Below are positions 11,127-20,423 of a stretch of DNA of 64,000 bases, piece by piece. Under the pieces are notes generated by a model. The model ran no database searches. It saw nothing but the letters and a program-made list of their open reading frames with translations, and had not been told where the DNA came from. The stretch is taken from assembly GCF_016903815.1 (NCBI RefSeq), contig NZ_CP069973.1. One strand, 5' to 3'. Position 1 is the stretch's first letter; every line of letters begins with the position of its first letter. Made by a program: the position numbers and the translations under genes. The DNA comes from Escherichia coli. GTDB taxonomy: Bacteria > Pseudomonadota > Gammaproteobacteria > Enterobacterales > Enterobacteriaceae.

Positions 11127-11765
11127 GGGAGTTCTACCGCAGGGGCGGGGAACTCCAAGTGATGTCCATCATCGCATCCAGTGCGTCCGGTTTATCCCCG
11201 CTGACGCGGGGAACACGTCAATAGGCGGCGTCCCGTAGCCGTCCCCTTCGGTTTATCCCCGCTGGCGCGGGGAACACGTTGAGGTCGATAAGTACGAACG
11301 GTTTCCCTGCGGTTTATCCCCGCTGGCGCGGGGAACACGATCGCCTGCTCCAGCGTCACTCCCTGCCCCTCGATTTATCCCCGCTGGCGCGGGGAACACT
11401 TCTGATACGTACTGAGGCCGGTTGTGATACGCGATTTATCCCCGCTGGCGCGGGGAACACTAACCCCCAATGAAGTTAATAAAGTCTATGGCCGATTTAT
11501 CCCCGCTGGCGCGGGGAACACATGAGATTAAAATACTCAGTACTCTTACTCGCCGATTTATCCCCGCTGGCGCGGGGAACACCAGCGTGGCGCGATAAAG
11601 CAATGTGTCTGGCTCGATTTATCCCCGCTGGCGCGGGGAACACCAGAGGCAACCGACGCGGATTCAGTAGGAAAGCGATTTATCCCCGCTGGCGCGGGGA
11701 ACACCGATAGACACTTTGCGGTCATTGTCTATTCGGCGATTTATCCCCGCTGGCGCGGGGAACAC
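11127..11765 (-). CRISPR. Type I-E CRISPR array: 10 regular 29-bp repeats plus one degenerate terminal repeat, 10 spacers of 32 bp
   Basis: Plus-strand repeat cggtttatccccgctggcgcggggaacac at 61-bp period. Repeats start ~11188, 11249, 11310, 11371, 11432, 11493, 11554, 11615, 11676, 11737; degenerate repeat ~11127..11155. AT-rich leader on the cas2 side, so transcription runs toward iap. Confidence 0.97.
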
Positions 11766-11861
11766 ACTAAGCATACATAACTGTTTTTAAACAAATTTAT
11801 TCCGCATCAACAATCTACCAACTAAATTAAAACATTTCCTTATTTTTAAAGAACAGATAAC
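11766..11861 (-). promoter_or_regulatory. CRISPR leader (AT-rich) between array and cas2
   Basis: AT-rich stretch abutting the newest repeat. Assigned by position, which matches the leader location described for E. coli I-E arrays. Confidence 0.7.
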
Positions 11862-12155
11862 TTATTGATTATCAACAGGAAGAAAAGAAACCAAACGCAC
11901 CCCATCCAAATCCACCGGAATACGTCTATTTTCACCCCAGGTCTGAAATTCAAAACCCGACTCGGTATTGGTCGCCCAGGCCATTACCACATTTCCGCAA
12001 CCTGCCAGTTGAGAGATTTGCTGCCAGATCATCTCCCGAATACGTTTGGACGTATCTCCGACATAAACACCGGCACGCACTTCCAGGAGCCAGATCGCGA
12101 TCCGTCCACGTAAGCGCGGAGGGACATTTTCTGTAACAACGACGACCATACTCAT
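11862..12155 (-). CDS. cas2: CRISPR-associated endoribonuclease Cas2
   Basis: 97-aa ORF ([18 protein letters not shown]...), recognised as I-E Cas2; array-adjacent; overlaps cas1 stop. Confidence 0.95.
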
Positions 12156-17626: not shown

Positions 17627-17723
17627 ACGCATCCTCTCGTAAAAAAGACCATCCCAGGTCGGTTGTCCATCATTCCATCCTTTTCGGTGTATCAACTATT
17701 CAGAGAGCCCTGTCGCAGGCATC

Positions 17724-20423
17724 TCAACCAACCTTGCCAGTCAATCCTTCCATAGCCGAATACCCGCAACTTTCGTCATCGGTAACTAAAATCACGTTTG
17801 CCATCTCCGGATCTTTCCGCTGTTCAATGCACCACTGCCTGAACGCTTCCCCTTCCAGTAAAGAAAACTCATCCCGATGTTTTTTCCACCAGCTTCGACG
17901 CACTCTGACAACGCTCATTTCCCATGCGTGAGCACCGTTGGCATAAGGCTTCACCACACTGGCAATACAGGTAGCCAGCCACAGGGAAACAGACTCCTCC
18001 GCCAGACGTGTCGACAGCTTTTCCGGAAGGTAATCGTTGATATTGGCGGCATAGCCAGGCCTGAAGTTCAGCACAAACTTTTTAGCCATTGCGCGATCGC
18101 AGTAATATTTGCCCACTTGCTCCTGCTCGCTGCGGGCAAATCCTTCCGGCATTACCACGTCCTCACCGTAGACTGATTCAATAAGAAGGCGGGCTGCGTG
18201 TGGCATTTGAATAGCGCCTTGCTCACGCAGTACACGCTGCGTCAGCCAGATTCGTCCATGATCGGGATAGACATATGCACTGTTACGCATGGCACTGCCG
18301 AACCATTCGTCACCTGGAGCGTCGTCCCAGACGGGGGCCAGAATCAGCAATTCAGGAGGGGAACGCTCGTCTTTTCCGTCACGCTTTAACTGACCATTAA
18401 TATCGCGGATATGCCGCTGTAATCGCCCCGCTCGCTGGATCAGCAAATCAACAGGGGCCAGGTCGGAAATCATTTCGTCCATATCGCAATCAACGCTCGA
18501 CTCTAAGACCTGAGTACAAATGAGGACTTTTCCGGCACGCTGTGAGCTATCTTCTTTACCGAAGCGTGCCAGCGTTTCCGTTTCAATTCGCTGGCGATCG
18601 CTAAAAGCAAAGCGGCTATGAAACAGAGAAAGGCTGGAAGCAGGAATGACGCCGCGGGCAAGCAACTGACGATAAACCTTAATAGCGTCATCGACAGAAT
18701 TCCGGATCCAGGCGATGCATTTCCCCTGACTTACTGCCGATTCGATACGCGCAATACATTCTTGTTCGCTATGAAGCCAACCCACGCTCACGCTACGCTC
18801 AACGTCTTTGCGCGTCGCTACCCGGTGTGAATGCACATCGGATTTCGTAACGTGCGTCAGCCAGGGGTAATCATCCTTTTCCAGGAACGGAGCTTCTTGC
18901 TGGCCCTCTGTACCACGCGCAAAGGCAGCAACGAGTTTGTCGCACTGCTGTTGAGATAACGTGGCAGAAAGCAAAATGACGCTGTTTCCGCCACGCGCCT
19001 GCCGCTCGATCAGCCCTTCAAGAATGCATGACATGTAAGCGTCACAGGCATGGATCTCATCAGCCAGCAGGATTTTGTTACTCAGTCCCAGAAGCCGCAG
19101 ATTATTATGTTTGAACGGCATCACAGCCATCATCGCCTGATCCAGCGTGCCGACGCCAATTTCAGCCAGTAGCGCCTTCTTGTTACTGTCGGCAAACCAG
19201 GCCGCACATCCCTGACTGAACGTTTGTTCATCCGGTTCTTCTGACCCGACTAAATCACCGGACCAGAGTGATTCATTAAAGCGGTCCATTAATGTTCGGG
19301 CACTGTGTGCCAGCACCAGGCTGGGGCGGGACTCTGGCGAATAGAAAGCAAGCCAGGTTTTGACCAGTCGATCGTACATGGCATTGGCCGTTGCCATTGT
19401 TGGCAGGCCAAAAAACAAACCCTGCGCTTTACCCGCAGCCATCAACCTGTGCGCCAGGATAAGCGCCGCTTCCGTTTTACCTGCGCCAGTCACATCTTCC
19501 AGAATAAATAACTGTGGCCCTGGCTGGCTGATATCCAGATCCAGCACCTTTTGCTGTAACGGTGTCGGATTCTCAATAAAAGGAAACAGCGTATTAATTC
19601 CGGTGAAAGGCGCGACTTTTGCTTTTAGAGGAAAGACGGTTAAGGCGTTTTGAGCCTGAACTAAAGTTTTCTGCCAGTAACCTTTAATATCCATTGGGTG
19701 TGCGACGCGTGGAAAAAATCGCGTTGACGAACCCGTCCAGTCTGCGAGCACGACGGTTGCAGAGATATACCAGGAAAGGTGTTTTATAAGTTCAATGCCC
19801 TCATCATCATCCCAGAATGCGGGGATCTCTATGAGCGGAAACAGTGGTTTGATTTCAAGAAGAAAATCTCGCGCGGCAGCTTTGTCTTCAGGCAGAAAAT
19901 TATCCAGTTCATCAATACGGTCAGGCGGGCGACCATGATGCCCGGTAGTTATGGGCATCCACATCTCCATCACCCGTTTAAGTTTGCGCGGAGAGAGTGA
20001 AGATGAAGGAAGCAATTCTTCGTATTCACTTAAATAATGATGCCACAGCCAGTAGCCCAGCGTTGAATGAGAGATCTTTTCGTAATTCTTTCTTGCGCCT
20101 TCCGGAACCTTGAGTTGTGGGTGCAGGTAAAGTTGCTGAAAAGAGCGGGCAAATTTTCCAGTATCGTGCCAGCACAATAGCCAGGCGAAAAATTGTGCTG
20201 CCTGCTCCGTATCAGCGAAACCTAGTTGACGAAAATAGTCAGTCAGCCCGAAGCAATTGCTTTTAACCATTAAATAGCCCATCGCGGCTACATCCAGCGA
20301 ATGCCAGCAAAGAAGGTGATAGTCGTCGCCCCCGTCTTTCTCGCCGCGTCGGGTTTTTCCCCAGAAATCAAAAAAAGTCACAATATTTTTATCCTTCAGT
20401 AAACTTAAAGGATATTTACGCAT
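17724..20423 (-). CDS. cas3: CRISPR-associated nuclease/helicase Cas3 (HD nuclease + DExH helicase)
   Basis: 899-aa ORF with N-terminal HD-like region (HSLDVAAMGY), Walker A (GAGKT) and DEIH box; ATG start. Confidence 0.95.
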   Translation of the reverse strand: MRKYPLSLLKDKNIVTFFDFWGKTRRGEKDGGDDYHLLCWHSLDVAAMGYLMVKSNCFGLTDYFRQLGFADTEQAAQFFAWLLCWHDTGKFARSFQQLYLHPQLKVPEGARKNYEKISHSTLGYWLWHHYLSEYEELLPSSSLSPRKLKRVMEMWMPITTGHHGRPPDRIDELDNFLPEDKAAARDFLLEIKPLFPLIEIPAFWDDDEGIELIKHLSWYISATVVLADWTGSSTRFFPRVAHPMDIKGYWQKTLVQAQNALTVFPLKAKVAPFTGINTLFPFIENPTPLQQKVLDLDISQPGPQLFILEDVTGAGKTEAALILAHRLMAAGKAQGLFFGLPTMATANAMYDRLVKTWLAFYSPESRPSLVLAHSARTLMDRFNESLWSGDLVGSEEPDEQTFSQGCAAWFADSNKKALLAEIGVGTLDQAMMAVMPFKHNNLRLLGLSNKILLADEIHACDAYMSCILEGLIERQARGGNSVILLSATLSQQQCDKLVAAFARGTEGQQEAPFLEKDDYPWLTHVTKSDVHSHRVATRKDVERSVSVGWLHSEQECIARIESAVSQGKCIAWIRNSVDDAIKVYRQLLARGVIPASSLSLFHSRFAFSDRQRIETETLARFGKEDSSQRAGKVLICTQVLESSVDCDMDEMISDLAPVDLLIQRAGRLQRHIRDINGQLKRDGKDERSPPELLILAPVWDDAPGDEWFGSAMRNSAYVYPDHGRIWLTQRVLREQGAIQMPHAARLLIESVYGEDVVMPEGFARSEQEQVGKYYCDRAMAKKFVLNFRPGYAANINDYLPEKLSTRLAEESVSLWLATCIASVVKPYANGAHAWEMSVVRVRRSWWKKHRDEFSLLEGEAFRQWCIEQRKDPEMANVILVTDDESCGYSAMEGLTGKVG

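Follow-up and report, generated by a model that had tools for sequence, protein, structure and literature searches.

The type I-E CRISPR-Cas systems of Escherichia coli are dimorphic, and the two forms have been described as cas-E1 and cas-E2 (Almendros 2014; PMC3903273). The ancestral majority variant, cas-E1, clusters with Salmonella enterica and E. albertii, has a mean GC content of 53.5% and is linked to leader L1, to IG4 and to hok/sok, whereas cas-E2, the variant of K-12 and of most phylogroup A strains, has a GC content of 45.6%, goes with L2 and IG5 and has no hok; hok/sok is found in all strains save the carriers of E2 (PMC3903273). In cas1-cas2-cas3 trees, E1 and E2 remain separate clades, and mosaicism of the Cascade genes inside E1 has already been reported (PMC3903273). 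The same two variants were named cas-EO and cas-EK by Díez-Villaseñor 2013 (PMC3737337), who associated the variants with repeats and leaders of the A type or the T type, and the leader type goes with the cas variant in both studies. K-12 acquires spacers beside CTT only, whereas acquisition by the O157:H7 variant takes place beside CTT and CAT alike, equivalent to AAG and ATG (PMC3737337), and a 2025 survey again found these two variants (PMC12736100). Here we analyze a stretch of E. coli DNA of 64,000 nucleotides (nt) (RefSeq assembly GCF_016903815.1, contig NZ_CP069973.1), hereafter called the window, in which an earlier reading made from the letters without database searches (the sequence-only reading) had described a complete type I-E locus at positions 11127-20423 with Cas protein lengths unlike those of K-12.

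We conclude, with a probability of roughly 0.93, that 11127-20423 is a complete and structurally intact type I-E CRISPR-Cas locus of the cas-E1 (cas-EO, O157:H7-like) variant. The allele is already known, it is routinely annotated by the NCBI Prokaryotic Genome Annotation Pipeline (PGAP), and there is nothing new in the locus.

Gene layout and subtype of the iap-cysH locus

The minus strand from 20423 down to 11127 carries eight unbroken cas genes in the order cas3-cse1-cse2-cas7-cas5-cas6e-cas1-cas2, followed on the same strand by a 96-nt leader and an array of 11 repeats and 10 spacers, which is the canonical I-E arrangement (Table 1). The site is that of E. coli CRISPR-I, the canonical position between iap and cysH, with cysD and iap on one flank and hok/sok, cysH, cysI and cysJ on the other. 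Neither the open reading frame (ORF) listing nor exact re-translation of the genes, which together span 11862-20423, revealed an internal stop in any of the eight, and in E. coli strain 7/2, where the cas operon is a 100% match, PGAP places the same genes at the same offsets. The full-length status that the sequence-only reading had given to all eight genes was therefore borne out, with no stop and no frameshift on exact re-translation and with matching PGAP calls, and for the same reasons we excluded pseudogenization. The mechanical ORFs of two genes extend beyond these calls, that of cse1 running on to a TTG at 17695 and that of cas6e reaching 13860.

Table 1. Positions of the features discussed in the text, numbered from the first letter of the window.
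Feature	Position	Strand	Description
CRISPR2.1 array	11127-11765	-	11 repeats of 29 nt, 10 spacers of 32 nt, 61-bp period
Leader of CRISPR2.1	11766-11861	-	96 nt, AT-rich, L1 / leader-A type
cas2e	11862-12155	-	97 amino acids (aa), ATG
cas1e	12152-13075	-	307 aa, GTG start
cas6e (casE/cse3)	13072-13722	-	216 aa, ATG; pre-crRNA (precursor CRISPR RNA) endoribonuclease
cas5e (casD)	13704-14450	-	248 aa, ATG
cas7e (casC/cse4)	14461-15516	-	351 aa, ATG; Cascade backbone subunit
cse2 (casB/cas11e)	15531-16067	-	178 aa, ATG; small subunit
cse1 (casA/cas8e)	16064-17626	-	520 aa, ATG after GAGAGG Shine-Dalgarno; large subunit
cas3-cse1 intergenic region	17627-17723	-	97 nt; 414 nt in K-12
cas3	17724-20423	-	899 aa, ATG; fused HD nuclease and superfamily 2 (SF2) helicase
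hok-cas3 AT-rich spacer	20424-20617	-	194 nt; GC 0.43-0.44 in 1-kb windows
hok/sok	20618-20912	-	intact; Hok ORF 20618-20770 (50 aa); between cas3 and cysH
CRISPR2.2	38311-38400	-	two degenerate repeats, one spacer; downstream of ygcE
CRISPR2.3	38903-39236	-	six repeats, five spacers; between ygcE and queE; same coordinates in PGAP

Coupled stop/start junctions had also been proposed for the operon, and this description holds for four of the seven junctions: adjacent genes overlap by 4 nt at cse1/cse2, cas6e/cas1 and cas1/cas2 and by 19 nt at cas5/cas6e. At the remaining three junctions the genes are separated, by 14 nt between cse2 and cas7, 10 nt between cas7 and cas5 and 97 nt between cas3 and cse1.

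All eight proteins passed the curated NCBIfam cut-offs for type I-E. The scores were 609 bits for Cse1 (TIGR02547; cut-off, 70), 103 bits for Cse2 (TIGR02548; 28.5), 448 bits for Cas7 (TIGR01869; 178), 159 bits for Cas5 (TIGR01868; 69), 286 bits for Cas6e (TIGR01907; 45), 381 bits for Cas1 (TIGR03638; 216) and 130 bits for Cas2 (TIGR01873; 33), and Cas3 scored 218 bits for its helicase core (TIGR01587; 102) and 89 bits for its HD domain (TIGR01596; 43). The best PADLOC models were likewise Cas3e, Cas8e, Cas11e, Cas7e, Cas5e, Cas6e, Cas1e and Cas2e. By these protein models the subtype of the locus is I-E, and the subtype call that the sequence-only reading had proposed as a check thus returned I-E for every protein by both NCBIfam and PADLOC.

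The same reading had suggested looking at the HD and DExH residues of Cas3 and at the catalytic histidine of Cas6e, and alignment with the K-12 proteins showed all of them to be conserved. Cas3 has the HD residues H86, D87 and K90, a Walker A motif GAGKT (K316), DEIH at 455-458 and SAT at 486-488, and H30 of Cas6e, in MHQWLW, aligned with the catalytic H20 of K-12, in LHQGLW. Cas1 residues E141, H208, D218 and D221 and Cas2 residue E9 are also conserved, and the four-cysteine cluster of Cse1 (C145, C148, C267 and C270) aligned with C140, C143, C250 and C253 of K-12. We take the functional roles of these residues in Cas3, Cas6e, Cas1, Cas2 and Cse1 to be those known from the K-12 literature.

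Typing against K-12 and O157:H7

Typing of the locus by pairwise identities placed it with the E1 strains. Amino acid identity to the O157:H7 proteins was 94.9% for Cas3, 96.7% for Cse1, 84.3% for Cse2, 99.7% for Cas7, 99.2% for Cas5, 95.8% for Cas6e, 99.0% for Cas1 and 96.9% for Cas2, and when the O104:H4 alleles were considered together with those of O157:H7, identities were 93-100% for every protein except Cse2 (84-87%). At the DNA level, cas1 and cas2 were 91.5-100% identical to those of other E1 strains. The leader was 95.8% identical to that of O157:H7 and ~78% identical, with gaps, to that of K-12, and the cas genes' GC content (51.7%, compared with 44.8% in K-12) is closer to the E1 mean (53.5%) than to the E2 mean (45.6%). 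By its sequence the window is of the E1/EO "arrangement A," with an O157-like leader, A-type repeats and hok/sok beside cas3. The view that the unusual lengths reflect the known dimorphism of I-E alleles rather than a new system was therefore upheld, the published variants being cas-E1 and cas-E2 and the window typing as E1.

Comparison with K-12 (reference locus, with protein identities by BLASTP) gave a very different picture. The Cascade subunit lengths quoted by the sequence-only reading (520, 178, 351, 248 and 216 aa) are those obtained by re-translation and by PGAP, and the K-12 lengths that it had given (502, 160, 363, 224 and 199 aa) proved exact, so that all five subunits do differ in length as it had claimed. 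Cse1 was 21% identical to K-12 CasA (520 versus 502 aa), Cas7 30% identical to CasC (351 versus 363 aa), Cas5 35% identical to CasD over 179 aligned positions (248 versus 224 aa) and Cas6e 27% identical to CasE (216 versus 199 aa), and Cse2 had no significant BLASTP match to CasB (178 versus 160 aa). Cascade proteins equal in length and more than 95% identical to those of K-12, which the same reading had named as grounds for abandoning its claim, were thus not what we found. Cas3 was also divergent (29% identity; 899 versus 888 aa). Neither of the K-12-type equivalogs tried passed its cut-off (NF007247 for Cse1, 104 versus 576; NF007248 for Cas3, 421 versus 569), and the locus does not belong to the K-12 cas-E2 (cas-EK) variant. 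BLASTN of the window against K-12 found no similarity in 13064-20767, covering cas6e to cas3, and 93-97% identity in the flanks of the locus.

Cas1 and Cas2 had been described as close to the K-12 proteins, which is correct at the protein level (85% identity, 307 versus 305 aa, and 84% identity, 97 versus 94 aa, respectively) but not at the DNA level, where the two genes are only ~71% identical to those of K-12. The contrast between 84-85% for Cas1 and Cas2 and 21-35% for the other proteins might suggest a hybrid, in which K-12-like cas1-cas2 had been joined by recent recombination to a foreign cas3 and Cascade. We regard such an origin as scarcely credible, since it is contradicted by the nucleotide identities of cas1 and cas2 (~71% to K-12, compared with 97-98% for the flanking genes iap and cysH, and 91.5-100% to other E1 strains). 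Furthermore, the leader is also unlike that of K-12, and E1 and E2 form the separate cas1-cas2-cas3 clades mentioned above (PMC3903273). The 71% identity argues instead that cas1 and cas2 were part of the exchanged module, the high protein identity being attributable to stronger constraint and not to recent shared ancestry. On the cas-E1 reading, the differences from K-12 would thus arise because the whole leader-cas module, cas1 and cas2 included, represents a different and anciently diverged I-E lineage, with K-12 carrying a minority replacement, E2.

The protein that departs most from the O157:H7 and O104:H4 alleles is Cse2, in which alignment traced most of the difference to a replaced patch with a one-codon indel at residues ~41-61 (window 15888-15950). 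Among 2453 E1 genomes, cse2 was at least 90% identical to that of the window in 1211 and 80-90% identical in 1242; Cse2 is dimorphic within E1, and the two haplotypes occur at about 1:1. It is improbable that the patch is under diversifying selection (for example, as the site at which a phage anti-CRISPR binds or at which Cse2 touches Cas3 or the non-target strand), in which case the haplotypes would be expected to differ in inhibitor sensitivity or interference efficiency. The patch equally fits neutral import by recombination, as noted for the Cascade genes of E1.

A new I-E sub-variant, different from the two E. coli variants already published, could be proposed from the 84-87% identity of Cse2 and its replaced patch at 41-61, from the 93-95% identity of Cas3 to the O157 and O104 alleles, and from a repeat variant, described below, that the first repeats of O157:H7 and strain U1 lack. 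This is very improbable: the window type of cse2 is common, being that of the 1211 genomes at >=90% identity, at least 40 sequenced genomes have an operon that is 100% identical and that receives routine annotation, and mosaicism of Cascade genes within E1 is known (PMC3903273).

At least 40 complete genomes carry the 8562-nt cas operon at 100% identity and 155 carry it at 99% or more, and an E1 operon with at least 80% query coverage occurs in 2419 of the 5426 complete E. coli genomes (~45%). The genomes with an identical operon include WCHEC96200 and WCHEC4533, published as sequence type (ST) 405, phylogroup D. The array and leader together were at least 99% identical in 120 genomes. The set of spacers marks the clone, which could be typed by its spacer content together with the repeat variant specific to the lineage. 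K-12, by comparison, carries the minority variant, and its protospacer-adjacent motif (PAM) preference, promoter layout and Cascade surfaces need not transfer to most E. coli, which include the clinically important ST405.

Some of the Cas proteins of the variant have relatives among solved structures. Cas7 was 83% identical, over its full length and without gaps, to chain E of PDB 9UER ("CRISPR-associated protein Cse4," 351 aa), such that a close structural template exists for the backbone subunit of this variant; a literature search on 9UER returned nothing relevant. Among solved structures, searches with Cse1, Cse2, Cas6e and Cas3 gave no comparably close homologue of any of the four, the nearest to Cas3 being the Thermus Cas3 structure 4Q2C (E = 6.5e-77, aligned over residues 20-763).

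Arrays, spacer targets and upstream region

The CRISPR2.1 array is read from the minus strand, starting from the cas2 side, and position 11127 is the outer end of its terminal repeat (11127-11155), which is degenerate. PGAP places a CRISPR feature at 11191-11765 on identical sequence, and the repeat pattern had 18 matches in the window, compared with 0 expected from shuffles. The repeats are A-type (...GGGGAACAC), and on the plus strand AACAC is the end of all 10 full ones; each of these is predicted to form a hairpin with a 7-bp stem and a GCCA loop (-15.1 kcal/mol, z ~ -3.6). Counting from the leader, repeats 1 to 7 have the sequence GTGTTCCCCGCGCCAGCGGGGATAAATCG, repeats 8 and 9 end in ATAAACCG, and repeat 10 does so too, with one extra mismatch (GCGTCAG). 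The seven leader-proximal repeats, at 11371-11765, thus share a C-to-T change (ATAAATCG), whereas the older repeats keep the C (ATAAACCG), as do the first repeats of O157:H7 and of strain U1, in both of which ATAAATCG is absent. Because new repeats are copied from the first repeat, this pattern implies that at least six spacers would have been acquired once the first repeat had undergone the change.

The repeats of CRISPR2.3, which presumably uses the same Cas proteins, are of the T type found in K-12 (GAGTTCCCC...ATAAACCG), alongside the A-type repeats (GTGTTCCCC...) of CRISPR2.1. With two repeat types in one genome, the E1 Cas proteins would need to process both. The presence of a T-type CRISPR2.3 beside an A-type CRISPR2.1 fits the published view that CRISPR-II is older than the leader-cas exchange.

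We searched the 16 spacers, concatenated, against phages and plasmids, and also ran a search of E. coli genomes. The phage and plasmid search gave informative matches from spacers 4 and 6 only; several of its "plasmid" matches were mislabelled chromosomes bearing the same arrays. Spacer 4 (11522-11553) matched at 32/32 positions in a prophage of CD306, among other strains, where the protospacer lies at the beginning of a gene of the LprI family. For spacer 6 (11400-11431), 29/32 positions matched in lambdoid Escherichia phages, in the region of the portal gene. Spacer 8 (11278-11309) matched at 32/32 in the coupling-protein gene of a type IV secretion system on a 31-kb plasmid, a match seen only in the E. 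coli genome search. The spacers of CRISPR2.2 and CRISPR2.3 had no target in the phage and plasmid searches. These are three of the ten CRISPR2.1 spacers. In this small sample, ATG precedes all three protospacers in E. coli phage, prophage or plasmid DNA, as expected of the AWG PAM of type I-E, and this flank matches the CAT/CWT motif determined for the O157:H7 variant (PMC3737337).

A fragment of this array was also found on a plasmid. In pR11-698-2 (NZ_CP107157.1), a conjugative IncI1/B/O plasmid of E. coli, ~2961-3135 comprises repeat-spacer 5-repeat-spacer 6-repeat, corresponding to window 11371-11521 and matching CRISPR2.1 exactly, ATAAATCG repeats included. The repeats lie in the crRNA sense on the same strand as blaCTX-M-15, and the fragment sits immediately downstream of an ISEcp1-blaCTX-M-15-wbuC-Tn2 remnant. 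It is bounded by an 11-bp duplication, GTTTAATCTCA, that has 10 nt in common with the end of spacer 4, and the empty site is visible in a related, uninterrupted plasmid (L010). The fragment, which occurs in only one plasmid of PLSDB, has the appearance of a piece of the chromosomal array captured through microhomology.

In strain FDAARGOS_1370 (NZ_CP070098.1), an IS4-family element, ISVsa5 (IS10-like), lies at 3782-4990 in the leader, in the gap between the array and cas2. The locus is otherwise 100% identical to that of the window, which is without the insertion. This leader insertion would probably uncouple array transcription and acquisition in that strain.

At the other end of the operon, cas3 is bordered upstream by a very AT-rich spacer that probably corresponds to the IG4 region linked to cas-E1 by Almendros 2014. 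This spacer is a candidate for the promoter of cas3, possibly of the whole operon, and for H-NS binding. Beyond it stands hok/sok, which we identified by an Rfam RF01794 (sok) match of 111.7 bits (gathering score, 59) at 20755-20912 together with the intact 50-aa Hok ORF, as expected of arrangement A, and which PGAP annotates on identical sequence as a Hok/Gef family protein; in K-12, only sokX remains at this position. The Rfam scan gave sok and CsrB only and thus no further RNA family in the locus. The CsrB small RNA (58984-59343, minus strand; 382.9 bits) is unrelated to the cas locus, as is the IS3-family element IS1397, which is annotated between ygcP and ygcQ (offsets 28362-29710) in the collinear strain 7/2.

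H-NS silencing of cas genes and the transcription of cas3 with or apart from Cascade have been studied in K-12 and Salmonella. By analogy with that work, the AT-rich stretch upstream of cas3 suggests silencing of the H-NS type, and the operon is probably largely silenced by H-NS there, like that of other E. coli. The 97-nt gap between cas3 and cse1 likewise suggests that cas3 may be co-transcribed with the Cascade genes, unlike the situation in K-12. A scan of 11000-21100 for promoters and terminators found no promoter- or terminator-like site in the cas3-cse1 gap and no promoter-like site immediately upstream of cas3, and promoter-like sites in the scanned interval were fewer than in shuffles.

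Predicted activity and comparison with known systems

From its family membership, the locus is predicted to carry out crRNA-guided interference and spacer acquisition. The leader would drive minus-strand transcription of the array, and Cas6e, acting through H30, would cleave at the 3' base of the 7-bp hairpin in every repeat, releasing 61-nt crRNAs, with an 8-nt 5' handle that would be AUAAAUCG for the seven newest repeats. Cse1, Cse2, Cas7, Cas5 and Cas6e would assemble with a crRNA into Cascade, which would locate protospacers beside an AWG PAM (here ATG), form an R-loop and recruit Cas3, whose HD nuclease and DExH helicase would nick and then degrade the target. At the junction of leader and first repeat, Cas1-Cas2 would integrate new spacers of 32 nt, copying the first repeat with every insertion.

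Several observations weigh against reading the locus as a working defense system. The array is conserved across 120 genomes, with no sign of ongoing acquisition in the lineage. A target could be identified for only 3 of the 16 spacers, and spacer 4 also matches at 31/32 in ~110-kb non-mobilizable IncFIB plasmids of Klebsiella, where the flank is the non-consensus ACG. Upstream of cas3 and of cse1, no strong sigma-70 promoter emerged from a consensus scan, and both H-NS silencing and the co-transcription of cas3 are extrapolations from K-12 and Salmonella.

The invariance of the array and the many spacers without a known target would also be expected if the locus were intact but a relic, permanently silenced and kept by drift or by a role other than defense (DNA repair linked to Cas1, or gene regulation). 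The IS10-family element between the array and cas2 of FDAARGOS_1370, which is accompanied by no other change, points the same way, and population surveys by Touchon et al. in 2011 are said to question active immunity in E. coli. We consider a relic possible but unlikely, because the genes show the marks of continued purifying selection: with the O157 and O104 alleles as the reference, dN/dS (the ratio of nonsynonymous to synonymous substitution rates) was 0.02-0.19 in every gene comparable without gaps, a set that leaves out cse2 and, for O104, cas1. (An ungapped comparison of cse2 gave a meaningless value owing to the internal indel and was set aside in favor of the alignment.) Furthermore, every catalytic residue checked is conserved, the matches of three spacers to mobile elements carry the correct PAM, and the at least six acquisitions after the repeat mutation argue for past activity.

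Among known systems, that of O157:H7 (E1/EO) is closest. It shares with the window the iap-cysH site, the gene order and protein lengths of 899, 520, 178, 351, 248, 216, 307 and 97 aa (cas3 to cas2), and amino acid identity is 95-99.7% for seven of the eight proteins. Leader type, the A-type repeat, hok/sok by cas3 and the ATG (CAT) protospacer motif are also held in common. The differences are that Cse2 is only 84% identical, its replaced patch being that of the haplotype found in about half of E1 genomes, that the seven newest repeats of the window have ATAAATCG in place of ATAAACCG and that its spacers are lineage specific.

The K-12 system (cas-E2/cas-EK; PDB 4TVX, 4QYZ and 5H9F) has the same subtype, gene order, chromosomal site and catalytic residues, and its 29-nt repeat hairpin and 32-nt spacers are as in the window. 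It differs in the gap between cas3 and cse1 (414 nt versus 97 nt), in the absence of an intact hok and in its acquisition motif, which is AAG only, compared with AAG and ATG in the O157:H7 variant (PMC3737337). The I-E systems of Thermus thermophilus and Thermobifida fusca (4Q2C and 4QQW; Cascade, 5U07) belong to distant phyla, with ~30% identity and different repeats. Even so, the Thermus Cas3 (4Q2C) scored 262 bits against the window Cas3, compared with 259 bits for the Cas3 of K-12, and the T. fusca Cas7 scored 157 bits against the window Cas7, above the 101 bits of K-12 CasC. That a Thermus Cas3 scores about as high as the K-12 protein illustrates the depth of the divergence between E1 and E2.

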